Below, piece after piece: positions 43,990 through 56,153 of a DNA stretch of 64,000 nt (position 1 is its first letter; every line of letters starts with the position of its first letter). The notes under the pieces are model-generated. The model was given only the letters and a program-made list of their open reading frames with translations, searched no databases and had not been told where the DNA came from. The DNA is from Escherichia phage rV5_ev158: the sequence record LR694611. One strand, 5' to 3'. A program made the position numbers and the translations under genes.

Positions 43990-44301
43990 TTATACGGTCC
44001 GGTCATTGGCCTTTGTCCAGGACCTGGCGATCCGTTTCCCAGTCACCTGGAACGGAGACTGCATTGTGTGTAATGAATCCAGCGTAAGGGAGGACCGTTT
44101 ACGGCGTATCTTCAGGATCGCCAATGTATTGTCCATCTCACGGCCAGGTCCTGGGCGGTATGGTGTGCCTCCAGCGTTAAGGTTGATGATCTCATGTATT
44201 GAGATCCGGCGTTGTTTTGCTTCCGCATCTTTGAAGATAGCCAGTGGAGGCGCTATGCGTTGCCGATACCAATCTAAAACGGTTGGCGTAATAGCGATCA
44301 T
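43990..44301 (-). CDS. hypothetical protein
   Basis: minus-strand ORF. Confidence 0.45.
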   Translation of the reverse strand: MIAITPTVLDWYRQRIAPPLAIFKDAEAKQRRISIHEIINLNAGGTPYRPGPGREMDNTLAILKIRRKRSSLTLDSLHTMQSPFQVTGKRIARSWTKANDRTV

Positions 44302-44489
44302 ATTTTACCCCCTATGTAGTCCGGTCGGTTTTTCTCTGTCATGCGTTTTAGCAATTCTTGAATAATCCCTATTGCGGTTAATGTCTCATCTTCACGCTTT
44401 GAGTCAACATACCCGGGATCGTTTATAACTTTTGTCTGATTATGATATCTCAATACCGCCAACACTTTTACAGCTTCATCAGTGGTCAT
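44298..44489 (-). CDS. hypothetical protein
   Basis: ATGA-type coupling to 43990..44301. Confidence 0.4.
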   Translation of the reverse strand: MTTDEAVKVLAVLRYHNQTKVINDPGYVDSKREDETLTAIGIIQELLKRMTEKNRPDYIGGKI

Positions 44490-44497
44490 TATCGCAC

Positions 44498-44632
44498 CTA
44501 AAACAATGAGTTAATATATAACACCAGATCGCTGACCACTAGAACAACACTGATCAGCACATACCTAACCATAAGGGTAAAGAGCGCCAATATTGACACC
44601 ACAATCCCCAAGGTGGTGATTATCTTTTTCAT
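44498..44632 (-). CDS. small hydrophobic membrane peptide (44 aa)
   Basis: MKKIITTLGIVVSILALFTLMVRYVLISVVLVV...; fills the gap between flanking genes; below ORF-track cutoff. Confidence 0.35.
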   Translation of the reverse strand: MKKIITTLGIVVSILALFTLMVRYVLISVVLVVSDLVLYINSLF

Positions 44633-44634
44633 GG

Positions 44635-44919
44635 TTAACGGTTCACGTAAGCTTTACCGTTTACCGTCATCGGCAAATCTTCCAGGTCTGGATCTTCCTT
44701 AAGGTCACGAGCAAGCTCACCGCACCGGATACCCTCGAATCCGTAGTACTCTGTTGTACCGTCATTAAAAGTTTTAGTGGCAAGGCATAAGCGATAAGTA
44801 ACCCCGATTCGATTGACGGCATGAATATCCGTTAGATTAACCTCTTTTGCCAGCTCATTAGCCATTGCAGGCGCATTAAGTCCAACAACCAGGGTAACCG
44901 CTGCGATCATCTTTTTCAT
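44635..44919 (-). CDS. secreted/periplasmic small protein (signal peptide)
   Basis: MKKMIAAVTLVVGLNAPAMA then ANE: signal-peptide-like N-terminus. Confidence 0.5.
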   Translation of the reverse strand: MKKMIAAVTLVVGLNAPAMANELAKEVNLTDIHAVNRIGVTYRLCLATKTFNDGTTEYYGFEGIRCGELARDLKEDPDLEDLPMTVNGKAYVNR

Positions 44920-45010
44920 TGTGTCTATCCTCTTTCTGCTACGTTTAAGGCGGCGGTAACCGCCTGTTTATGCTTTGTTGGTTAATTTTCAGGTATCTGT
45001 ATAAATTAAA

Positions 45011-45226
45011 CTATGCTGTACGCTCAACTATAACAACGGTTTGGGGGATCTCCCCTTCCACCACTAGTAAGGCCTTTTTCTGCGTGATAGATATCTTTAC
45101 CCGTTGCAGCGTGGCGGTGAAGTCTTTCATTTCGTCACGCGGTGTTTTAGTGCAGTACCAGATCTCAGGCTTGCCGATCTGTAAGTTGCGTAAAAATTCT
45201 GTTTTGCCTGTTTTGTTAGTGATCAT
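45011..45226 (-). CDS. hypothetical protein
   Basis: GGTGAGG RBS upstream on minus strand. Confidence 0.4.
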   Translation of the reverse strand: MITNKTGKTEFLRNLQIGKPEIWYCTKTPRDEMKDFTATLQRVKISITQKKALLVVEGEIPQTVVIVERTA

Positions 45227-45410
45227 TTGTCAACCTCACCCGATACCGTTGGAAGACAAGATCACATTAGCCATGGTTGCAATCAGGCCAATACCCAGGG
45301 CAATAACCGGGATCACAGCATCAATTAATTTTTGTTTCATGGTGTTTATTCTCTTCTGTTAGTAACCTTATTCATAGGGCCGCTGCCACGGCCCCAGGGT
45401 AAGGCGGCTA

Positions 45411-45656
45411 TTAGTGTTTCATTCCAACCATAGCGGCGCGGATCGCCGTAGTGCTGTACTTGAAGCCGTCCGGGGTCTTATCTTGTCCGGTTAGCTCCAG
45501 AAAAAGCATCATATCCCGCGCCGCATCATTACGATTAGCATTAGCGTTAATAAAGCCTTGGGCCAACCGGTACAATGACTCATCGTTATTAATCCAAAGG
45601 CTTACATTCCAATGAGTTTTGTTTTTGTAACCGTTATAACCTTTATTGCTTTTCAT
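45411..45656 (-). CDS. hypothetical protein
   Basis: minus-strand ORF. Confidence 0.45.
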   Translation of the reverse strand: MKSNKGYNGYKNKTHWNVSLWINNDESLYRLAQGFINANANRNDAARDMMLFLELTGQDKTPDGFKYSTTAIRAAMVGMKH

Positions 45657-45747
45657 GGTGTTTACCTCTTCTTTGTTCCGGGTGGCGGATCATTCTACCA
45701 CCTTATGTATTATGCTTTGTTAGATGGTTGTTTGTTGTCAAACTATT

Positions 45748-45927
45748 TTAACGATAATCATCGTACGCTTTATTAACCTGGCGAATATAACATTCAAAAG
45801 CTAGATCAATAGATTCATATTCACGGATATACTCACCATAGGAAACCACATACATTTCTATAGCTTCCTCATATGCGAGGAGAATAGAATCTAAGCCTAC
45901 GATCTCGGTCTTTGCAATAATAGCCAT
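45748..45927 (-). CDS. hypothetical protein
   Basis: start set at internal ATG (MAIIAK) with AAGAGGA RBS; in frame with ORF 45748..45969. Confidence 0.4.
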   Translation of the reverse strand: MAIIAKTEIVGLDSILLAYEEAIEMYVVSYGEYIREYESIDLAFECYIRQVNKAYDDYR

Positions 45928-46002
45928 GATTTTTATCCTCTTTGTGGTTGGTGGGGCTTGTTGCTCCATTTTATTTATATATTACAGTTTTATATGGTCA
46001 TG

Positions 46003-46236
46003 TCAACTATTTTCAAAAAATTTTTCTGCTGTGATATTCTTTCCGGTAGGGTTCGCTACTTTCAAAATTCTATCATGCACCGGACGCCCGAAAGAATAAG
46101 ATCCGTATACAGTAAACCAATAATCACCGTCAGGCTGTACTATTACCGCCGCATAGGGTACGCCTTTTTCGTTTTTGCTGACAAAATAGATCACATTGCC
46201 ATTAATAGCCTCAGTGCGTTTAATTTGTTCCATCAT
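46003..46236 (-). CDS. hypothetical protein
   Basis: minus-strand ORF with 5' GC hairpin upstream. Confidence 0.45.
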   Translation of the reverse strand: MMEQIKRTEAINGNVIYFVSKNEKGVPYAAVIVQPDGDYWFTVYGSYSFGRPVHDRILKVANPTGKNITAEKFFENS

Positions 46237-46291
46237 GATGATTTACCTCTCTTTATTTTCATAATTGGGGGCCTTTTCGGCCCCGCCAGGT

Positions 46292-46576
46292 TTATTTATT
46301 GATAGCGTGCAGCGGGAAAGCTACGCCAGGTTGATAAATAACCTTTACAACCTCATCAGGACAAAAGAAGTTGCAGAACTCACCGCAATAGGCCTCATCC
46401 TCTTTCAACTCTTCATCAACATACTCAAAAAAGTAGTCGATGCTTGGATAATCCTGGCCGGGATTATAGTCAACCATCGTTAATAATAACTCTTGATCAT
46501 TCCGTAGGATGTGCATACCCGCTTTTAAGTATTTTGCTTCCATTTCTACTACATCGCCAGCGGTAACAATAGCCAT
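46292..46576 (-). CDS. hypothetical acidic protein
   Basis: minus-strand ORF; TTGCAT-N17-ATAATA promoter-like sequence upstream. Confidence 0.45.
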   Translation of the reverse strand: MAIVTAGDVVEMEAKYLKAGMHILRNDQELLLTMVDYNPGQDYPSIDYFFEYVDEELKEDEAYCGEFCNFFCPDEVVKVIYQPGVAFPLHAINK

Positions 46577-46778
46577 GATTTTAACTCCTATCTATCTGGT
46601 CAACGATTGGGGGCCTCCCCCTCGACAACTCTTATTATCCATATTGTCGGGAATGATGCAAGTACTTCTTTAAAAATTTTTTAAGCGCCCCGTATGCCGT
46701 TGTAACGCCAAAATAATAAAGGCCATGCAACCGCATGGCCTTTATGTGATTATATTGCTGCAGGCCCTGCTAGGGGCC

Positions 46779-47129
46779 TTATTTTGCATTCTTGCCTGTA
46801 TTGCCGCCACGGTACCAGCGTTTGCGGTGAAAATGGTAATAATCACCCTCGGCATTAAACATCAGATGATTTTCAATAACCAGCTTACGAAGGTGGGCCG
46901 GATCTTGTTCCATTCTTGCCAGATTCCGGCGGCTGTTACGTAAGCGTATAAATTCCATATTCAGGCCGTTGATTGCAGCATGGATGTTAAAGTAACCACC
47001 TTTGAGACGTTCACGCATGGCGTTAAGCTCAACACAATATACAGATTTCTCACAAATCAAGGTATTAGCTAGGGCGCGGACCTGGGCAAGGGGGTTAAGC
47101 TCATTAAAGTAATATAGTTTGACTTTCAT
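46779..47129 (-). CDS. hypothetical protein
   Basis: minus-strand ORF followed by hairpin terminator (~46721-46742). Confidence 0.5.
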   Translation of the reverse strand: MKVKLYYFNELNPLAQVRALANTLICEKSVYCVELNAMRERLKGGYFNIHAAINGLNMEFIRLRNSRRNLARMEQDPAHLRKLVIENHLMFNAEGDYYHFHRKRWYRGGNTGKNAK

Positions 47130-47146
47130 AAAATCGCCTGCTGAAA

Positions 47147-47446
47147 TTAGTTTGAGAAAACATCGTTCACAATAGCGATCACAATGCCGCCCACCTTGTC
47201 ACGGTCAACAATGCACAAATCACCATAGATCATGTGGTAGTCTGGATGATCTTTCACAGAATAGTCAATAAGTGTTTTCTTGTCATCCAGCTTCGTAACT
47301 TCCATTCTCATAACGATATGAGAATCATCAAAGGCATTATTCCGAAAAGTCATAGCCTGACCGCCAGGGCACCCGGTGATCTCCACTTCCACACCATCTA
47401 CGATCTGACCATCAAAGAAATAAAGATTATTAGCCTGGATAAACAT
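47147..47446 (-). CDS. hypothetical protein
   Basis: start set at internal ATG (MFIQANN) with AGGAG 8 nt upstream; track GTG start sits directly on the RBS. Confidence 0.45.
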   Translation of the reverse strand: MFIQANNLYFFDGQIVDGVEVEITGCPGGQAMTFRNNAFDDSHIVMRMEVTKLDDKKTLIDYSVKDHPDYHMIYGDLCIVDRDKVGGIVIAIVNDVFSN

Positions 47447-47493
47447 GTCTATCACTCCTTGTTAACTGCGTGGTATTTTAACAGGGTTTAAAT

Positions 47494-47536
47494 TTACTTT
47501 ATTGATGGCCCTGGAGTCAAGGCCATCTAAAAATAA
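47494..47536 (-). promoter_or_regulatory. conserved 43-bp intergenic element, copy 1: hairpin GATGGCC...GGCCATC with TTGACT in the loop
   Basis: near-identical copies at 51231-51273 and 51852-51896. Confidence 0.5.
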
Positions 47537-47539
47537 ATT

Positions 47540-47740
47540 TTACAGGCCTACAATCTCTTTGATTCGTTTAACCGCTGCCTCAGCGCCTTGGGGGTAAAAA
47601 TTATGGTAACCAATCACGCGAGTGATACTAATCGCCGTTTGATGATCTTCATAGTCGCCCTTGAAGATTTCTTGACCGTCAATCAGCACGGCAATTTTTT
47701 CTTCTTTTTTGAAGTTAATAACGCGGATATTGTTGCTCAT
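47540..47740 (-). CDS. hypothetical protein
   Basis: minus-strand ORF. Confidence 0.45.
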   Translation of the reverse strand: MSNNIRVINFKKEEKIAVLIDGQEIFKGDYEDHQTAISITRVIGYHNFYPQGAEAAVKRIKEIVGL

Positions 47741-47879
47741 TTTGTTTCTCCTTTCTGGTTTTTGTGGTGGTGGGGATTAGCTCCCCGTTGATTGTTATTA
47801 TCCACATTCCGGACCGGATTGCAACACCACGGAAGAAAAATTTTTTAAAAAGATAGGCCCCCATGATCGGGGGCCGTTC

Positions 47880-47999
47880 CTAGTTACTTACAGCGATAAA
47901 GTACATCCCTACGCCTAGCAATATTTCAAGGGCGATAATCTCAAGCCATACCATAACGCGGCGCACCTTATCGGTGCATGGCTTATCCTTGGTTGTCAT
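47880..47999 (-). CDS. small hydrophobic membrane peptide (39 aa)
   Basis: MTTKDKPCTDKVRRVMVWLEIIALEILLGVGMYFIAVSN; GGAGGAAA RBS; followed by hairpin plus T-run; competes with overlapping track ORFs. Confidence 0.3.
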   Translation of the reverse strand: MTTKDKPCTDKVRRVMVWLEIIALEILLGVGMYFIAVSN

Positions 48000-48218
48000 C
48001 GTCTCCCCCTTTCCTCCGGGTAGTAGTGACGCGATCTACAATGGCCCCCAGGAGTCCTATCACGACACACACCACAAGAAAAATTATCTCCGCTGTTGTT
48101 CGATCCATTGTTATAAAATTCCTCAAGATCAGGCCTGAAAATAAAGCGTTCGTTATTGAATCCGTCACGCCAGGCGGCTGGCTTCAAATCTTCACTAAAG
48201 GGATTAATTAACGTGGCA

Positions 48219-48590
48219 TTATTTAAACGGTTGGCCCACATATTTTCTATTCCTCTCAAATAGGCGATCCGCCTCAGTTAAACATATCTCATGGGCTTGA
48301 TCTCTGGTTTTAGCCTCATCAAAAACCTGTTGTGCCAGGCTGCAGCGTAGGGAGACTGGAAGATCACTATAATAGGCGTTGACAAACGTTTGAGCGTCGT
48401 ACAGGTCTGAAAATACTTTACCCTTTCTATTATTCCCCTTGTCAACAATTGCAAGGATAACCAATACAATAGTTGCAACCACCCCCAGGAAAATAGATAT
48501 AATAAACCATAAAAAGGCGGATCTGCCCATCTTGCCAGCGATCCAGGCGTTAAACAAGGAAACCAATACAGCCAAAATAATAAATTCCAT
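48219..48590 (-). CDS. membrane protein (two hydrophobic helices)
   Basis: start set at ATG (MEFIILAVLVSLF) with AAGAGG RBS; in frame with ORF 48219..48623. Confidence 0.5.
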   Translation of the reverse strand: MEFIILAVLVSLFNAWIAGKMGRSAFLWFIISIFLGVVATIVLVILAIVDKGNNRKGKVFSDLYDAQTFVNAYYSDLPVSLRCSLAQQVFDEAKTRDQAHEICLTEADRLFERNRKYVGQPFK

Positions 48591-48654
48591 TCTATGTACC
48601 TCTTTTGCAGTTCTGTTTAACAATAAGGCGGCAAATATGCCGCCTGTTACCTGA

Positions 48655-49035
48655 TTAAAAATTATCGCCGTAAATCTTTCCGCTTTCTGCCCATACCACC
48701 ACGCGGGGCATACTATCCCACACGTCTTGTTTTAGATTGAGCGCGTGCAATTCTTCGGTGGTGCCCATACCAGGCACGGGCTGATTGTATACTGCAAAAC
48801 GACCACCTGCATAATCGTAGGCCAGAGTTAAATCACACTGGATCATCTTTTTGATCATGGCGTTGAGCATAGCGTTAGCCGCATACTGGTCACGTTTTAA
48901 AGGCAACTCTTTGATTAGTTTGCGATAGTTTTCAATGTGATCGCACACTGTTTCACGTGGAAGATCTTTCATGTCCTCGCGAAAGGTAACCAGGTTAAAC
49001 ATAACGGTGTCAATAGCTTTAGTAGTGTTTTTCAT
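48655..49035 (-). CDS. hypothetical protein
   Basis: minus-strand ORF. Confidence 0.5.
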   Translation of the reverse strand: MKNTTKAIDTVMFNLVTFREDMKDLPRETVCDHIENYRKLIKELPLKRDQYAANAMLNAMIKKMIQCDLTLAYDYAGGRFAVYNQPVPGMGTTEELHALNLKQDVWDSMPRVVVWAESGKIYGDNF

Positions 49036-49124
49036 AATGTTTACCTCTTTGTTTTGTGTGGGGGCAAACGTCTTGCCCCTTGAGTTTTAATATAGCAGGT
49101 TTTTAGGTTATTGCAACACTTTAT

Positions 49125-49748
49125 TTATGAAAAAGTCATCTCGCCATATTCATCCACATCAAACCGCCAATCATTGGCCTCGATAAGGCCGATCAGGTTT
49201 TCGGTGGTGAATTGTTCAAGATAGGCTTGCTCCAGGTCTACGTAAACCTTGCGGGATAACTCCCGTACCGTCTCGGTGATCAGCTCTTCCAGCTCTTCAA
49301 CTTTATCCTCTTGCTTGGTGGTCAGGTCTAGCCAATTGGTATCGATGCACCCGCCTATTGTGTTTTCGTGATGATAATGGCTAAACGGGATACGTTCAAC
49401 GCTGGCTGACAGTTCGCCATCATGCATTGTGCCGAACAAGTGTCTAATTAAGCGGAATTTTGTAAGCGCTTTAACCTTACGCAAGAATTTTTCTAAGTTT
49501 ACATTTTCAGCACTAATTGATGCGCCGTCGCCTTGACACCAAAAGCCGGACCAATGTACTTCGGTATCTTCAAGGCCGTACTCTGGAAAAACATATTCTT
49601 TATAGTATTCAATTACACTTTCTGCGAAAAAATCCTCTCCGCTGTGTTCTTCTCTTTCGCGGACCATTTCAATAGCCTTTTCTTTTTGTTCGTCGGTCAG
49701 CACGTCGAAAGATAAATTGCAACCTGTGGTAATGTTAACGGTGGTCAT
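49125..49748 (-). CDS. hypothetical acidic protein
   Basis: consensus promoter and 5' hairpin upstream; conserved-looking WSGFWCQGDGASI segment, family not recognised. Confidence 0.55.
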   Translation of the reverse strand: MTTVNITTGCNLSFDVLTDEQKEKAIEMVREREEHSGEDFFAESVIEYYKEYVFPEYGLEDTEVHWSGFWCQGDGASISAENVNLEKFLRKVKALTKFRLIRHLFGTMHDGELSASVERIPFSHYHHENTIGGCIDTNWLDLTTKQEDKVEELEELITETVRELSRKVYVDLEQAYLEQFTTENLIGLIEANDWRFDVDEYGEMTFS

Positions 49749-49805
49749 GATATTTTCTCCTGTTTTCTTTGTTAGTGGCGGGAAGTTTTCCCGCCTGTGT
49801 TTTTA

Positions 49806-49833
49806 ATTATACTTATTGAGATTTACTTGTCAA
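49806..49833 (-). promoter_or_regulatory. sigma70-type promoter TTGACA-N16-TATAAT on minus strand
   Basis: read as reverse complement upstream of gene 49125..49748. Confidence 0.6.
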
Positions 49834-50083
49834 CACTATTTTTTAAATTATTGTGGCGCAAAATGTTTAAAATCTCCTCAACGTCATCAACACGGCGGCA
49901 ATTTTTAAACGCTACCAATTGCCCCATGATTTTAATCACTGGGCGGCCTTGCCAGTGCCCCTGGAGAAAGCGCGCCTTGACTTTATCGGTGGAACTATCA
50001 CGCCACCAAATGGCCTTGTTGTTGCAGTAGTAAAAATTATTCAGGACAACATCAACTTTATCAAAATTTTTTAATTTACGCAT
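49823..50083 (-). CDS. hypothetical protein
   Basis: minus-strand ORF. Confidence 0.45.
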   Translation of the reverse strand: MRKLKNFDKVDVVLNNFYYCNNKAIWWRDSSTDKVKARFLQGHWQGRPVIKIMGQLVAFKNCRRVDDVEEILNILRHNNLKNSVDK

Positions 50084-50324
50084 GGCGTTTACTCCTTTCT
50101 CTCTTTGATGTGGTTAGTATAGCTAACCTGTTTAAGATGTCAAGCTTTAAATAAAATCACTGTCAATGATATTTTTAACGCCATAAAACGGCCCTAAGCG
50201 ATGTTTTCAGGTTAAAGGGGGGCGATTGCATAGGTGGGGCCTTTTTGGCGCTTACAGGGCCAACCAGGGGCGCTATTCGTAGGATAGAAATAAAAAGCCC
50301 CGCACAATGGCGGGGCGTTGGTTG

Positions 50325-50522
50325 TTATTTGTCTTTATGGCGGTATCGTTCTGCCTGTCGTTCACGTTCCAAAAGTAGGCCAGGCAATTTACGATCATAA
50401 TGATTTCGCCAGATCTTTCCAAATCTTTTTGGCTTATTCAGTTTATTGTTACGCTGGCGTCGTTCCGGCAGCTCTTCGGAATCATGAGATCGCTTTACAA
50501 TCTTCTCAAAATTAATCTTCAT
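50325..50522 (-). CDS. small basic protein
   Basis: start set at ATG (MKINFEK) with AGGGGGG RBS; in frame with ORF 50325..50546; hairpin terminator after stop. Confidence 0.4.
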   Translation of the reverse strand: MKINFEKIVKRSHDSEELPERRQRNNKLNKPKRFGKIWRNHYDRKLPGLLLERERQAERYRHKDK

Positions 50523-50883
50523 ATATTCCCCCCTTGCTAACTTCAATATTGGCCTGAATAGCCCGGATACGCCGTTTTATAACCTCCTGATCCTTGCAAT
50601 CATATCCCCAAAAGTCTACGATTTTTGCGCCTCCAGCCTTTAGGCGGTATAGTGTTTCTTGCATCTTGTAGGCCGGGATCGGTCGCGGTGTTACCTGGTC
50701 GCCCTTCTCATTCTTGTACTTGATAATGTAGTCTTCATTGTCGTTGAATATCCAAAATGGGTATTCTGTGAGCGCGTTGCTCTCTTTTTCGTTTTTAGAT
50801 TGGATCTTGTTTACAATTAAAGCCGTAGCAATAGCGCCAATAATAAAACTTGCCCCACTGATCATGTTACTTTCTCCTTTCAT
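50512..50883 (-). CDS. hypothetical protein with N-terminal membrane anchor
   Basis: ISGASFIIGAIATALIV hydrophobic segment. Confidence 0.45.
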   Translation of the reverse strand: MKGESNMISGASFIIGAIATALIVNKIQSKNEKESNALTEYPFWIFNDNEDYIIKYKNEKGDQVTPRPIPAYKMQETLYRLKAGGAKIVDFWGYDCKDQEVIKRRIRAIQANIEVSKGGIYED

Positions 50884-50941
50884 TGTATTGATAAACTATC
50901 TTTATAGATGGCCCTGCTACCAGGACCACCGAAAAAACAGT

Positions 50942-51187
50942 TTATTTGACGATACCGACAAAACAGATCCCGCCTTCCCCTATATAGGCAATATCGGTAA
51001 TTTTATAATTTGTCAAGATCCGCGTGTTCAGCTCATTAATAAAATCTGTCATCGCGTTGGTGTAGTTGTCTTCCGTGTCTAAGGCATAATCCCAGGTGTA
51101 AACCTTTTTACGTCCGAAGCCTTTTACCATGATACGGGCGCTTTTGGTGTTGGTAGGGGCATAATATTTGGTGATTAGTGCTGCCAT
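50942..51187 (-). CDS. hypothetical protein
   Basis: ~44 nt downstream of conserved element copy 2. Confidence 0.45.
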   Translation of the reverse strand: MAALITKYYAPTNTKSARIMVKGFGRKKVYTWDYALDTEDNYTNAMTDFINELNTRILTNYKITDIAYIGEGGICFVGIVK

Positions 51188-51230
51188 GGTTTTAACTCCT
51201 ATGCATTAGTTCAGTGTTAACAGTATAAAG

Positions 51231-51273
51231 TTTACTTTATTGATGGCCCTGGAGTCAAGGCCATCTAAAAATA
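51231..51273 (-). promoter_or_regulatory. conserved 43-bp intergenic element, copy 2
   Basis: TTTACTTTATTGATGGCCCTGGAGTCAAGGCCATCTAAAAATAA on plus strand. Confidence 0.5.
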
Positions 51274-51276
51274 ATC

Positions 51277-51618
51277 TTACTCGTTTTCTTCCAGCTCCGC
51301 AAGCTCTTCTTTTGCTTCTTCTAACTCTGTCTGTAATTCCTGGTATTCTTCATCGTCCTCAATATCCAGGCTGTCGATGTAGTCGCTAAATCCGCAGCGG
51401 TAAGCGATAGGATCTAGCTCCTTGAGGATACGCGACGGAAGAAAAGAAATGTTTCCGATCATGATTTCGCCGTAGATCTCGTCTAACCATTCATCATAGT
51501 TTTCGTCGTACTTGTCCTCGTCGATTTCAAAGGTATCGATCTTGTTCTCAAGGTCTGCGATCTGTTTTTTCAGTGCGGCAACCTGAATAGCTTTTTCTGC
51601 GGCGGTCATAGTAGTCAT
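51277..51618 (-). CDS. hypothetical acidic coiled-coil-like protein
   Basis: minus-strand ORF with 5' GC hairpin upstream. Confidence 0.5.
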   Translation of the reverse strand: MTTMTAAEKAIQVAALKKQIADLENKIDTFEIDEDKYDENYDEWLDEIYGEIMIGNISFLPSRILKELDPIAYRCGFSDYIDSLDIEDDEEYQELQTELEEAKEELAELEENE

Positions 51619-51851
51619 GGTGTTTTCTCCTTTTGTGTGTTCTGGGAAGTTTTCCCGTTTACGGGTTTAAGTATACCGATCTAAGTTAGCTTGTCAATTA
51701 AAAATTTAAGAAAAATTTTGCAAAACTGTTAGCGCTACTCATTAACATTTGCGCCAGGATGTAACCGACAACGCAGACGATAATAGTTACCTTTGTGTAT
51801 TGGCGTGTAGTGCCCATCTTAAAGCCCCCTTTTTCGCTTAACTGAGATTAG

Positions 51852-51896
51852 TTTACTTTATCGATGGCCCTGGAGTCAAGGCCATCTAAAAATAAA
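51852..51896 (-). promoter_or_regulatory. conserved 43-bp intergenic element, copy 3
   Basis: differs from copies 1 and 2 at a few positions only. Confidence 0.5.
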
Positions 51897-51897
51897 C

Positions 51898-52302
51898 TCA
51901 ATAAGTTTTTAGTACTTTCCCGTCCAACCTGTCTAGCTGGATCTCAATGGCTGCAGAAAACCTATTATAAACCACGTCGCCCATGGAATCCAACCAGTCT
52001 ATGACGTTATACACTTGCTCTTTGTTCTTGCAGGTCCGGATCCGTTTCATGATGTAAGCCGGATCAATATTGGTACTCTCGTTGGTGTTCCCCTGTACCT
52101 GGTTTGCCGTATTAGCCACATCTTTAATGGCCTTTACCACCACCTGGAAGGGCTTTAAGGTGCCTTTTGCGTTCATCTCACGCGCTTTTGCGGCGCGGTT
52201 GTTATAGGTTACACAACGGCGGCAAATGTTCACTAAGTGCATGTCAATAATTTTTTCATCGTTTGCCAGTTCGTTCATGATGCGGCGTACGTTCTTATTC
52301 AT
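51898..52302 (-). CDS. hypothetical protein
   Basis: TTGACA-N16/17-TAAACT promoter-like sequence and GGCGGGA...TCCCGCC hairpin upstream. Confidence 0.5.
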   Translation of the reverse strand: MNKNVRRIMNELANDEKIIDMHLVNICRRCVTYNNRAAKAREMNAKGTLKPFQVVVKAIKDVANTANQVQGNTNESTNIDPAYIMKRIRTCKNKEQVYNVIDWLDSMGDVVYNRFSAAIEIQLDRLDGKVLKTY

Positions 52303-52384
52303 GATCTTTTTCCTTTGTGCTGGCGGGAAACATTCCCGCCTTTTGTGTCTAGTTTACTTAAATTTTGCAGCGTGTCAATGATTT

Positions 52385-52783
52385 TTATTCGTGGGCGCAT
52401 GTCACAATGTGCTTTTTATAGCCCAGGTGGTCAGCAAGTGCCGACAAAAACTCTTCTTCGTAGATCCAGCCGTCGGCAGTGATCCCCATAGCATTTAATG
52501 CACTCTCAAGTGCTGCGTTAGCTTTATCGTAACCGTGACCGCTCGCCTTGCCGCCAGTATAACCGTACTTATTGTTCTTGTTGTCGTGAATCCAAAACAC
52601 GCAGTAGTGAGTGTTACCACTGGCGGCGGCATAATACCGGATCTCAGCTACTTCGTGCAAATTATTGTCATCATCCAGGCCCACCAGATTATAAGCCTTG
52701 TAAAATCCACGATCACGGCGGCAGTTCTTGACATCAGAAAAAGAAAAGTCCGCATTATCAAAATTAAAGGTAGTGGTTTTCAT
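52385..52783 (-). CDS. hypothetical protein
   Basis: minus-strand ORF. Confidence 0.5.
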   Translation of the reverse strand: MKTTTFNFDNADFSFSDVKNCRRDRGFYKAYNLVGLDDDNNLHEVAEIRYYAAASGNTHYCVFWIHDNKNNKYGYTGGKASGHGYDKANAALESALNAMGITADGWIYEEEFLSALADHLGYKKHIVTCAHE

Positions 52784-52846
52784 GATTTTATCCTCTTAGT
52801 GTCTTTTGCGATTTCAGTGTATTTTGTGTCAGACCATATGTCAACA

Positions 52847-53044
52847 TTATTTTTTATTAAACCAGTGGTTGATCTGACCTTTTGTCAGGGCGCAACGGTT
52901 AAGCTGTTGCAGGGTATAGCTATGACCGCGACGAAATTTATAAAGGCCTTGCCCGTTGTTGATGGTTACATCCACCCGGCAAATCACTTGATTGGTGACC
53001 ACCTGGCGAGTGTTGCGACGTACTTTAATTCCGTAGGCGTTCAT
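52847..53044 (-). CDS. hypothetical protein
   Basis: minus-strand ORF. Confidence 0.4.
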   Translation of the reverse strand: MNAYGIKVRRNTRQVVTNQVICRVDVTINNGQGLYKFRRGHSYTLQQLNRCALTKGQINHWFNKK

Positions 53045-53139
53045 GATTTTTTATCCTCTCTGTTAATTGGTGTGGTGTTGTTCACCTTGCGAGGATAAGA
53101 ATAACAAGAACTGTCCGAGCTGTCAACCATTAGTTAAAA

Positions 53140-53307
53140 TTATTTTTTTGGGTAGAATTCTCCAGCCGCCGCCCCTGCCAGGTTAACCATCATTTTTTCG
53201 TACTCTTCTTTATGTTCCAACGCTCCCGCCATAGCCTTTTCAACCAGGGCGATAGCCTCAGCGTCATTAATAGCTACATTTTCCAGGGGGATCATATTAC
53301 CTTCCAT
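53140..53307 (-). CDS. small protein (55 aa)
   Basis: MEGNMIPLENVAINDAEAIALVEKAMAGALEHKEEYEKMMVNLAGAAAGEFYPKK; RBS GAAGAGGAGG; below ORF-track cutoff. Confidence 0.4.
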   Translation of the reverse strand: MEGNMIPLENVAINDAEAIALVEKAMAGALEHKEEYEKMMVNLAGAAAGEFYPKK

Positions 53308-53519
53308 TTTTGTACCTCCTCTTCAATTGTTACCTATCCTATAGCATAGGCCCACCAGGTTTGCAAGCCTTCATTCTCTCCTACCTGGTCAGTTAGGCCC
53401 TGCCAGGCTGGCCCCGCCAGGTTGCAGCGGTCAGCGCATCAGGTTAGAATTTTTTTTTTTGAAAAGTGTTGACAGCGGCCCCGCCAGGTGGCAAAATATA
53501 CCTATCGAAAGGACGGCAG

Positions 53520-53700
53520 GCACCGGTGACGGGGGAGACAACCACCGGGGATGGGCGCTGCATGAAATGAGAACGATTATCATTATCGTCTAAAAATTTA
53601 TGCAAAAACTTCTTGCTTTCTTTGTCCTGTGTGTTACTATAATAACAAGCCGGGGCAGTAGGGGCCGGGAGACAATCACCGGGCCTGCCCGTTATTCTGC
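53520..53700. repeat. two ~60-bp direct repeat units, each with GC-rich core GGGAGACAAYCACCGGG and GAGAAYGATTATCATT
   Basis: read from ORF-free region. Confidence 0.5.
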
Positions 53701-53844
53701 AAACGAGAATGATTATCATTCAAAATTCTAAATGAGAACTCCTCGCATTTAATAAATTTAATTAGCACGCTAATTACCCTACGTAACAATTTCCTATAAA
53801 ATAGTATCCACTAAAATATTCCCATATAGAAATTTTAAAAATCC

Positions 53845-54020
53845 ATTTCTGAAAACGAAAAATCGATTTCGTCCCCAAAAATTTCAGGTCGAGAGCCGGA
53901 ACGATTTCCGGAAAATCCGATTCAGAAAACGAAAAACAGATCGAGTACTGAGAAATTTATCGAGAAAAATTTTCAGAAAATTCAATCTTTGAAACGAAAA
54001 ACAGATCGAGTACTTGGAAA
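53845..54020. repeat. three tandem AT-rich ~65-75 bp repeats; core GAAAACGAAAAACAGATCGAGTACT exact twice, degenerate once
   Basis: read from ORF-free region. Confidence 0.55.
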
Positions 54021-54324
54021 GCTGCGCCACAACTTCAAGGTAGTGGTTGGATTATTACTATAAAAGGTCAAGGGTAAGTGGGGGAAGTTCTAGTAGAAGG
54101 GTGTGAGCATGTGCGGGAAATCTGTAATGGTGGTCTGGAATATGGTGCAGACGATAGGATGAGTGGTTCATCTCGTCGTGCCTGCTCTGAAAAATCCATT
54201 TTAGTTTTCGATCCATTTTCTGATTTTCTAAGGATTTTAAAATATCCTGGTAGGTAAAATATCAAAAGGAGGAAATCCATTTTAGAAATCCTCCTGATCT
54301 CTGGCAACCTGATAACTTAAAATA

Positions 54325-54657
54325 TCAGGCTCCCAGTGTGTTCTTTCCTTTATACAACCGTAAGGGTATAGTTTTTGTAACAGTCCATCTCCCCAGCCCT
54401 TCCCAGTTCCAGTTGTAGGCATGGTACCCGGTTACGCATGCACTGCTGGAGTGATCATAGGCATAAGAGAACGCTATACGCACCAAATGAAACCAGTCTT
54501 TCCACGGTTGTGGTCCGTAAGCTTTTCTCCAACACCGACACAAGCTAAATGTCTCAAGAATAGGCAGGATAACAAATCCATACACCGCCACCAGAATAGC
54601 CAACGCAATGATTGTCAGGAATACATACCCTGCAGTTGAAACGATGATCTCTGTCAT
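54325..54657 (-). CDS. membrane protein
   Basis: VFLTIIALAILVAVYGFVILPIL hydrophobic segment. Confidence 0.5.
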   Translation of the reverse strand: MTEIIVSTAGYVFLTIIALAILVAVYGFVILPILETFSLCRCWRKAYGPQPWKDWFHLVRIAFSYAYDHSSSACVTGYHAYNWNWEGLGRWTVTKTIPLRLYKGKNTLGA

Positions 54658-54857
54658 TTGTCGTCCCCTTTCTTATGGATATAGATGTGAGAGCCTGCCT
54701 GTATATAAATTTCTCGACCATCTTCTGCAAAGATATGAAATACACGATCACCTTCATACTCGATACGTGATATCTTCATAATGGTCTTTCCACCTGGGAT
54801 GCGGATCTCGTCCCCCACAGCGATGTTCCATGCAGATTTAAGCTTAAACATCTGCAC
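54654..54857 (-). CDS. hypothetical protein
   Basis: coupled minus-strand ORF. Confidence 0.45.
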   Translation of the reverse strand: MQMFKLKSAWNIAVGDEIRIPGGKTIMKISRIEYEGDRVFHIFAEDGREIYIQAGSHIYIHKKGDDK

Positions 54858-55089
54858 CCTCCTTTGGGAGCTCTAACTCTGGCATAGCCATATACGCCAC
54901 AACAGGGTTGTAATCAAAGTAGAAATGACCGTTAATTATCCCAGTTTTGTGCACATGGTCACCAGATCCTGCAAGAACAATCTCGCAAGCTCCGAAATCA
55001 ACCTTGCCATTCTCATCTGCCATGGCTACAATATACTTTCCTAGAGGCATGTTTTCAACGCCGTCTACAAATGTCCACCCTTTGTTCAT
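54844..55089 (-). CDS. hypothetical protein
   Basis: coupled minus-strand ORF. Confidence 0.45.
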   Translation of the reverse strand: MNKGWTFVDGVENMPLGKYIVAMADENGKVDFGACEIVLAGSGDHVHKTGIINGHFYFDYNPVVAYMAMPELELPKEGADV

Positions 55090-55109
55090 ACTTTATCTCC
55101 TGCACTTTC

Positions 55110-55445
55110 TTAAGGTAACCAGTAAACAATCTCGCCTTTCAGCTTCATGTCATTTCCAACATAAATTTGCCAGCCATCCATCGTTTTGGCAACTGCAGGC
55201 CCAAAGTCATCCGCACCCCTTACCTCTTTCCAGGTCCCGTAGTCAGGTTGCCAGATATAAAATCCACCTTCTTTGTCCCATGCTCCATACACCACGTTTG
55301 ACAGGTTTCCCATTGCAACAATAGTGGGCCGTGGGAATAATGCATCTACAGATGCGCCACAATATCGGGTATCTTTTAAATTGCACTCCCAAAAGATGTC
55401 TGCCAGTGTGGCGGCGATAGCTTTACGTCTTTCTAATGTTACCAT
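55110..55445 (-). CDS. hypothetical protein
   Basis: minus-strand ORF. Confidence 0.45.
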   Translation of the reverse strand: MVTLERRKAIAATLADIFWECNLKDTRYCGASVDALFPRPTIVAMGNLSNVVYGAWDKEGGFYIWQPDYGTWKEVRGADDFGPAVAKTMDGWQIYVGNDMKLKGEIVYWLP

Positions 55446-55452
55446 ATCATAC

Positions 55453-55644
55453 TCACTTGTTGTTAATAAGTTCTAAAACTTTCTGTCTTACTTTGTCAAG
55501 ATCTGTTGATTCAAAAACTGTACGATATCCCCAACTTTGCCCATATGAGTGATTGCAATCCCCGTAGCACCATTGCTCAATTTGATAGTATTCAAGGAAC
55601 GGGTGCTGTCTAACTATGATACCATCCCGGTTAAAAATTACCAT
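55453..55644 (-). CDS. hypothetical protein
   Basis: minus-strand ORF. Confidence 0.4.
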   Translation of the reverse strand: MVIFNRDGIIVRQHPFLEYYQIEQWCYGDCNHSYGQSWGYRTVFESTDLDKVRQKVLELINNK

Positions 55645-55707
55645 AATACATCGCTCTCTGTTAGTTTATGCGTATATTATACACTGCAGTTTTCAGATGT
55701 CAACCTC

Positions 55708-55959
55708 TTACAGATTGCTCCAGTACAATCGGCATTTACATTTTGGGCAATGAGGTTCTTTTATGTAATAACCATCAGTCTTTGGAACACTTTTTGGTGC
55801 AGTTTTAAGATTGTACCTGGTAAAACATCTGAAGCAGGTTACCTCTCCCACCTGTTGATCGTTGATCCACTCACCAGAGTAAAGCTCTTTCTTGTTTCTC
55901 ATAATTCTCTCCCAAATCCTCTGCAATCTTATACCAAAATCTCCAGCCAGAAAGCACAC
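55708..55959 (-). CDS. small zinc-ribbon-like protein
   Basis: CFRCF...CPKCKC Cys pairs; start may be internal. Confidence 0.45.
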   Translation of the reverse strand: MCFLAGDFGIRLQRIWERIMRNKKELYSGEWINDQQVGEVTCFRCFTRYNLKTAPKSVPKTDGYYIKEPHCPKCKCRLYWSNL

Positions 55960-56153
55960 GGGAACACTTTGAGGATTGAATCTTTACTTGGCTCGGAAGT
56001 TCTTTTTCCGTATGGTAGGTAGAAATACCCTCCTGCAGATTCGAATATAGCTCCTTCGGTTGTATCTACCACAGCAAGAATTAAGATTTTAGTCTCCACA
56101 GTGCTCTCCTCTCTTAGTTGTCGTGGAAACTATATCACCTCAGAAGATGGTCG

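Follow-up and report, generated by a model that had tools for sequence, protein, structure and literature searches.

The window analyzed here, a stretch of 64,000 nucleotides (nt) from the genome of Escherichia phage rV5_ev158 (LR694611), contains a block of small minus-strand genes of unassigned function in which a short intergenic element is repeated. We describe this element, its folding as RNA, and its probable role. The 6-kb stretch around the repeats is 100% identical to that of Escherichia phage rV5_ev168 (LR694610.1), and, judged from this match, the window corresponds to approximately bases 63949-127948 of LR694610.1. The same 6 kb show 94-96% identity to more than 100 other Vequintavirus genomes. 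The rV5 genome paper places the small-gene block within one long leftward transcription unit with sigma-70-type promoters (PMC3606486).

The 24-nt core of the repeat, GATGGCCCTGGAGTCAAGGCCATC, occurs exactly three times, at plus-strand positions 47504, 51242, and 51863, against none expected by chance (100 dinucleotide shuffles). The longer string that the initial annotation described as a 43-bp element comprises 44 nt, at 47493-47536, 51231-51274, and 51852-51895, with one mismatch in copy 3 (C for T at 51862). The copies lie where they had been placed, except that copy 1 starts one base earlier. Each of these three main copies resides in a minus-strand intergenic gap, starting 1-3 nt past the stop codon of the preceding gene and 34-47 nt from the next start codon, and within each genome the three are nearly identical to one another. 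Near-identical intergenic copies upstream of minus-strand genes, as originally described, are thus real. A genome-wide check for additional copies, which had been suggested at that stage, yielded one: a search with the conserved 3' half of the element, CAGGGCCATCWATAAAG, revealed a fourth, diverged element at approximately 50891-50945. All four copies fall within 4.4 kb of the small-gene region, and neither the CAGGGCCATCWATAAAG motif nor a covariance model detected any more in the other 74 kb of the 138-kb genome.

Two other readings were set aside. The copies could have been remnants of a duplicated gene end, a caveat already raised in the initial annotation; the proteins flanking the four copies are, however, mutually unrelated, and the similarity stops at the hairpin base. 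At the ATGGCC of the element, short open reading frames (ORFs) begin on the plus strand; real genes lie antisense to them, and the variation tracks the hairpin rather than codons.

Architecture and conservation of the hairpins

RNA folding predicts that the sense (minus-strand) RNA of each copy adopts one long hairpin of 43-55 nt, and these models suggest that the hairpin would also form in vivo. In the main copies, the upper stem is a G+C-rich helix of 10 bp (GAUGGCCUUG/CAGGGCCAUC, including one U.G pair) closed by the 4-nt loop ACUC. The 7-bp stem of the initial annotation is present, but it is only the top of this larger structure, and TTGACT is not located in the hairpin loop as had been proposed, given that the loop holds ACUC only. 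An internal loop, with 2 nt in the 5' strand and 3 nt in the 3' strand, separates the upper stem from an A-U lower stem of 7-13 bp over the four copies (7-11 bp in the three main copies). The lower stem has a 5' strand that reaches the upstream stop codon and a 3' strand that constitutes the box originally read as a "-10" element. The sense-strand folds have energies of -22 to -28 kcal/mol, compared with about -9 kcal/mol for shuffled sequences (z-scores of -5 to -8 over the four copies); on the plus strand, copy 1 and the fourth copy, the only two for which such folds were obtained, reach -16 and -12.7 kcal/mol, respectively (z about -2.5).

Hairpin copy 1 (47490-47540, minus strand) has a predicted energy of -23.6 kcal/mol, against -9.2 kcal/mol for shuffles (z = -5.6), and scores 80.9 bits with the covariance model in the sense orientation and 38 bits in antisense. 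Its lower stem pairs 47540-47530 with 47500-47490 and its upper stem pairs 47527-47518 with 47513-47504; the ACUC loop is at 47517-47514, and the 3' side of the internal loop is at 47503-47501. Copy 2 (51232-51274, minus strand) consists of a 7-bp lower stem and a 10-bp upper stem, with optional outer pairs beyond (-22.3 kcal/mol, z = -5.1, 83.4 bits), and copy 3 (51850-51898, minus strand) has 10 bp in each stem (-26.2 kcal/mol, z = -6.3, 82.5 bits). The fourth, diverged hairpin (50891-50945, minus strand; -28.2 kcal/mol, z = -7.8, 74.1 bits) shows the same layout without TTGACT: its upper stem, GGUGGUCCUG/CAGGGCCAUC, contains two G.U pairs, the loop is GUAG, and the 13-bp lower stem encompasses the stop codon of an 81-aa gene. 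Over the 24 nt of the upper stem and loop, the variant of this copy in phage Murica matches the main type at 19 positions and the copy in the window matches it at 17, which indicates homology rather than coincidence.

For comparative analysis, we compiled elements from 14 Vequintavirus genomes or contigs, to which four metagenome contigs were later added. The first alignment included 32 distinct variants from the 14 genomes or contigs, and the pairing statistics were obtained on its ungapped form. The same fold was predicted for all 32 variants as well as for the Vequintavirus variants from the four further metagenome contigs. Standard pairs fill 92.5% of the alignment cells, compared with 35-55% after a shift of the 3' partner by 1-3 columns. 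Two-sided changes were found at six lower-stem pairs, for example, U-A to C-G at columns 13-57, A-U to U-A at columns 16-54, and G-C, A-U, or G.U at columns 12-58. The covariation score of 0.189 compares with at most 0.068 in the shifted controls and was reached in none of 500 shuffles. The fourth-copy orthologs taken alone also include a compensatory U-A to C-G change (columns 13-57) and three pair types at columns 15-55.

The conserved fold is specific to the RNA sense strand. Among the 17 core pairs, 99.8% of the cells pair in the sense orientation and 85.7% in antisense, the lower antisense value being due to the G.U pairs that make up 14% of them, and the covariance model assigns the four copies 74-83 bits on the sense strand vs 29-38 bits on the antisense strand. 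In the main type, four of the nine unpaired columns vary, compared with two of the 35 paired columns (Fisher test, p = 0.011); the variation affects the loop, the pair that closes it, and, on the 3' side of the internal loop, the first base. The 3' arm CAGGGCCAUC and the AAAG motif are invariant. Orthologous hairpins have a nucleotide diversity of 0.02-0.07, compared with values of mostly 0.06-0.26 for the flanks.

The family appears to be confined to one genus. An Rfam scan of 46500-52500, with E-values up to 10 retained, returned sub-threshold chance matches only, the best overlapping one being to the rhtB small RNA model (23 bits vs a gathering score of 55, E = 1.7). A blastn search with the element against 50,697 phage records matched only Vequintavirus-like genomes (120 records). 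Pattern and protein scans of IMG/VR yielded two Vequintavirus contigs and otherwise chance matches, and a metagenome scan yielded four more Vequintavirus contigs, in addition to one already known from IMG/VR, along with unrelated chance matches. The covariance model found no element in the first 50 kb of phage phi92, the other Vequintavirinae genera not having been scanned.

Promoter-like boxes and operon context

On the minus strand, all three main copies carry the arrangement noted in the initial annotation, TTGACT followed after 18 nt by TAAACT or TAAATT. In copy 1 (47491-47520), which matches the consensus at 9 of 12 positions, TTGACT is at 47520-47515 and TAAATT at 47496-47491; copies 2 (51229-51258) and 3 (51850-51879) have TAAACT as the second box. 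In a sigma-70 consensus scan, the three copies (9/12, with a spacer of 18 nt, the widest allowed) belong to the weakest class in the region, whereas the accepted promoters of the region score 10-12/12 with spacers of 16-17 nt. The spacer is as strongly conserved as the boxes, in agreement with the original argument that the element is more than an ordinary promoter. Both the "spacer," which is the 3' arm of the stem, and the "-10" box are invariant because they are strands of the stems. Variability within the element is greatest in the "-35" region, for which relatives have TTGACT, TTGACA, TTGACC, TTGACG, TTGATT, TTGATA, and TTTACT (the last one twice). The spacing between the boxes also changes in two cases in which the hairpin is kept: in copy 1 of phage VB-EcoM-WM, one extra nt in the internal loop brings the distance to 19 nt, and in copy 3 of a divergent contig from sewage, both the loop and the internal loop carry 1-nt insertions, for a distance of 20 nt. 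As judged from these sequences, the pattern of variation is opposite to that expected of a promoter.

Each hairpin is located between cistrons of an operon that has its own canonical promoter and U-tract terminator elsewhere. For example, one such operon comprises, in order, a promoter (51697-51670), a 113-aa gene, hairpin 2, the 81-aa gene, hairpin 4, two genes, and a terminator (50316-50297). The rV5 paper lists 33 promoters and 20 terminators, none of which is one of these elements.

Two of the alternatives that we considered concern transcription itself. The elements could be primarily promoters, either early sigma-70 promoters or promoters dependent on a phage factor, with a palindrome that is incidental or that tunes the promoter as a DNA-level cruciform or factor-binding site. 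The TTGACT-N18-TAAAYT arrangement is accompanied by a T-rich upstream stretch in the three main copies, a perfect TTGACA is present in many relatives, and the three main gaps contain no other consensus promoter, unlike most neighboring gaps; moreover, copies 1 and 2 are annotated as promoters in the record of phage Gotham, following PhagePromoter predictions. Nevertheless, given the low scores and wide spacer, the tolerance of altered "-35" forms and spacings next to an invariant "spacer," a fourth copy that keeps the fold and has no "-35" box, and G.U pairs that indicate RNA rather than a DNA palindrome, we regard a primary promoter role as unlikely. What the sequence makes plausible is a weak embedded sigma-70 promoter in the three main copies, as a secondary property. 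Thus, the initial suggestion of a dedicated element holds insofar as the element is structured, and of the two roles then offered, processing is favored over a factor-dependent promoter. The opposite label appears in the record of phage Murica (KT001917), in which the orthologs of copy 1 and of the fourth copy are annotated as 45-bp terminators, and each element does place a stable G+C-rich hairpin right after a stop codon. Intrinsic termination was rejected, and we consider it extremely improbable: no U-tract follows the stem on either strand, the flanks being U-rich on the 5' side and A-rich on the 3' side in both orientations; a terminator scan reported none of the four elements, yet it detected genuine terminators nearby (47875-47856, 48645-48626, 50316-50297, and 46745-46716); and, as noted above, the elements are missing from the 20 terminators of the rV5 paper. 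The elements are hitherto undescribed and are inconsistently labeled in public records.

A candidate processing signal and its alternatives

We propose that the elements, a family of four in early sense transcripts of Vequintavirus, are intercistronic processing or stabilizing hairpins of the RNase III type, with an optional weak sigma-70 promoter in three of the copies, a reading for which, from sequence comparison, we see about an even chance. Its more general component, that a sense-strand RNA hairpin acts post-transcriptionally as a processing or stabilizing signal, is probably correct. The more specific one, that RNase III acts on the hairpin, is a tentative assignment, somewhat less likely than not, that draws on analogy with known substrates, as does nuclease action of any kind on these hairpins. 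Under this proposal, read-through from an upstream promoter would produce an RNA that folds into a helix of about two turns, which would be a target for post-transcriptional recognition, with host RNase III as the likeliest enzyme, by analogy with the intercistronic sites of phage T7. Were the RNA cut once, in the internal loop, the downstream cistron would be released and the upstream one would retain a protective 3' hairpin; in a close alternative, the hairpin would be purely protective at the 3' end, with no cleavage. The TTGAC(T/A)-N18-TAAA(C/T)T arrangement in three of the four copies may provide a weak internal sigma-70 promoter and would not be what selection maintains. The repeats, being direct repeats of 45-50 bp, additionally serve homologous recombination that deletes or inserts gene modules.

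The substrates on which Escherichia coli RNase III acts usually span two helical turns, and internal loops restrict the enzyme to one bond, leaving a 3' hairpin that protects the upstream RNA (Pertzev and Nicholson, PMC1540722). The predicted structure has this extent, with 10 bp, the 2 x 3 internal loop, and then 7-13 bp.

Several observations weigh against the proposal. For good reactivity, RNase III needs a minimum of 11 bp from the cleavage site to the loop, and a G-C pair beside the scissile bond is possibly a catalytic antideterminant (PMC1540722); the upper stem here has 10 bp, although non-canonical pairs in the internal loop are possible, and the internal loop is bordered by a G-C pair. 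Binding by RNase III without cleavage, or no action of the enzyme at all, is thus conceivable. The conservation exceeds the needs of double-stranded RNA recognition, and gene conversion between paralogs or a sequence-specific binding protein could account for this. Most copies keep TTGAC, and a perfect TTGACA is frequent among relatives, so that selection may act on promoter function as well. All the compared sequences come from a single genus and are at least 90% identical, the tested structure was derived from the same sequences that were used to test it, and much of the double-change signal stems from a single old split between the main and the fourth types. A literature search for transcript-end, RNase III, or reporter data on Vequintavirus found none. 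In a Keio-collection screen with the rV5-like phage LL12, only lipopolysaccharide genes were required, so that any dependence on RNase III must be dispensable for plaque formation; the region is an accessory one, and this screen is therefore silent on the role of RNase III in it.

The direct repeats recombine, as is apparent from sequence comparison of relatives. The 621-bp module at 51275-51895 (minus strand), which consists of one repeat, a 39-aa membrane ORF, the canonical promoter at 51697-51670, and the 113-aa gene, is missing from phages ECP26 and phiWec189 and from the IMG contig 2051223002_000007, and the junction falls inside the repeat. The pairs of BLAST segments obtained for ECP26 and phiWec189 share 61 bp, corresponding to the element, and the copy that survives in each of the three relatives is a hybrid, flanked on the 5' side as in copy 3 and on the 3' side as in copy 2. 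The 39-aa hydrophobic ORF of this module (MGTTRQYTKVTIIVCVVGYILAQMLMSSANSFAKFFLNF; 51698-51817, minus strand) lies directly downstream of copy 3, and the most distant relative has a sequence-diverged small ORF at the same place. In phage rV5_ev146, the 134-aa gene and copy 3 are lost (51805-52316 of the window), with a deletion junction outside the repeat, at an overlap of about 10 bp between the flanking alignments; this phage also has no match to the part of the 44000-56000 stretch of the window below 50377. The region is therefore variable by more than one mechanism.

The remaining alternatives concern what the repeat itself is and what binds it. Selfish or neutral repeated palindromes, similar to REP (repetitive extragenic palindromic) or PeSL (promoter-early stem-loop) elements and kept by gene conversion, would have as their only real effect the shuffling of small early genes by recombination. 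Direct repeats in a variable small-gene region, the 621-bp module between copies that is absent in three relatives with its junction in the repeat, and the near-identity of the main copies within each genome, as gene conversion would give, all fit this account. It seems to us quite improbable, considering that there are just four copies, in one orientation and at a constant distance from the stop codon, that the hairpin diversity is below that of most of the flanking coding sequence, and that conversion does not explain why the fourth copy, although diverged, has kept every pair or why compensatory changes occur among its orthologs. Alternatively, the palindrome could serve as a DNA operator bound by a dimeric protein of the phage or the host, for example, an early-gene repressor or a site-specific recombinase. 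An inverted repeat with invariant arms, GATGGCC...GGCCATC, that overlaps the promoter-like boxes would be suitable for such a role, which we nonetheless consider highly improbable: in the fourth copy, the two arms lack full symmetry as DNA (8/10) and pair completely as RNA via G.U, the A-U lower stem with its compensatory changes has no role in a short operator, and the half-site centers are 17 bp apart, off the helical phase. A further possibility retains the RNA hairpin and replaces its partner. Here, the hairpin would be the target not of host RNase III but of an early phage-encoded protein, either an endoribonuclease or a regulator of translation or stability, that recognizes the invariant 3' arm CAGGGCCAUC, the internal loop, and AAAG; promoter and RNA signal would then constitute one switch, with read-through RNA made first and the weak internal promoter used after the factor appears. 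We consider this possibility, including both the recognition sequence and the switch, very unlikely.

Related systems, neighboring features, and implications

The putative processing hairpins resemble the RNase III signals of T7 (R1.1, R1.3, and others), in which hairpins of about two turns likewise separate the early cistrons of a lytic coliphage. When T7 R1.1 was folded with the tool used for the rV5 copies, a GCAA loop closed an upper stem of 10 bp, and an asymmetric internal loop set this stem apart from a lower stem of about 9 bp; the rV5 hairpin shares this layout, with the same length of the upper stem, a tetraloop, and an internal loop that is likewise asymmetric above the lower stem. 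The T7 signals also adjoin promoters, and the expected product is a 3' hairpin that protects the upstream mRNA (PMC1540722). There is, however, no sequence similarity between the two; the internal loop of the rV5 hairpins is smaller (2 x 3) and the lower stem is nearly pure A-U; the promoter-like boxes are inside the rV5 hairpin and beside the T7 hairpins; and cleavage of the rV5 hairpins is a prediction.

The PeSL cassettes of T4-like phages (PMC2839356, PMC4122927) are short, conserved composite motifs between small ORFs of variable early regions, combine a sigma-70-like promoter with a stem-loop, and have copies that bound indels between close relatives, all of which resemble the rV5 repeats. 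In the PeSL layout, a terminator stem-loop lies just upstream of an early promoter (PMC4122927). The rV5 repeats occur in multiple copies and bound indels, but have no separate terminator stem-loop upstream of the promoter, and we rejected their assignment to this class: the boxes are embedded in a much longer hairpin without a U-tract, one copy is promoter-less, the copies number four rather than dozens, and they belong to another phage lineage.

REP elements and other intercistronic hairpins that stabilize mRNA are repeated, extragenic, imperfect palindromes that follow stop codons inside operons, as do the rV5 elements. Hairpins of the REP type can protect the upstream mRNA and serve as recombination substrates. 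In contrast to REP elements, the rV5 copies are very few and confined to one phage genus, have no associated transposase, and form a longer, two-part hairpin.

Several observations were made on the neighborhood and on the matching records. The 81-aa gene (50942-51187, minus strand) between hairpins 2 and 4 has homologs with 35-47% identity in unrelated phages (tblastn), namely, Seuratvirus-like coliphages and Pseudomonas, Klebsiella, and Roseobacter phages, which suggests, at the level of sequence, that the gene moves horizontally; these homologs were of no help with the element. Two near-identical palindromic hairpins of the form GGCGGGAA(NN)TTYCCCGCC are located at 49777-49795 and 52322-52340, each about 10 nt downstream of a canonical TTGACA promoter, so that they would be at the 5' end of the sense transcript; both are terminator-like by score on the plus strand, and similar G+C-rich hairpins in 5' untranslated regions follow other promoters of this region. 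The 761 bp at 53564-54324 contain no ORFs and correspond to the "non-coding" box of the rV5 paper. This segment includes three iterated 57-nt repeats at 53825, 53899, and 53964 (spacing of 65-74 bp) and several shorter repeat families, and may be a replication origin or another protein-binding array. Among the GenBank records that match the 6-kb query, 17 (MG0656xx) are named "Campylobacter phage," with C. jejuni or Campylobacter given as the host. The nine such records listed show about 94% identity over 6 kb to this E. coli Vequintavirus, and the host labels are probably wrong or result from contamination.

By sequence comparison, the elements described here are a new, small, genus-restricted family of hairpins of a familiar kind. 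The finding is modest, involving one genus, four copies, a non-essential accessory region, and a familiar mechanism. The public labels of these elements conflict, as they are terminators in Murica, promoters in Gotham, and absent from the rV5 paper; identification of the conserved feature as a structured RNA corrects the annotation of more than 100 Vequintavirus genomes, several of which belong to phage-therapy candidates. The direct repeats mark sites at which modules of small early genes are lost or gained, which is useful for engineering these phages. If the hairpins are sites of the RNase III type, the early polycistronic mRNAs of rV5-like phages would be cut into segments in the manner of T7, and the elements would offer an entry point into gene regulation in Vequintavirus.

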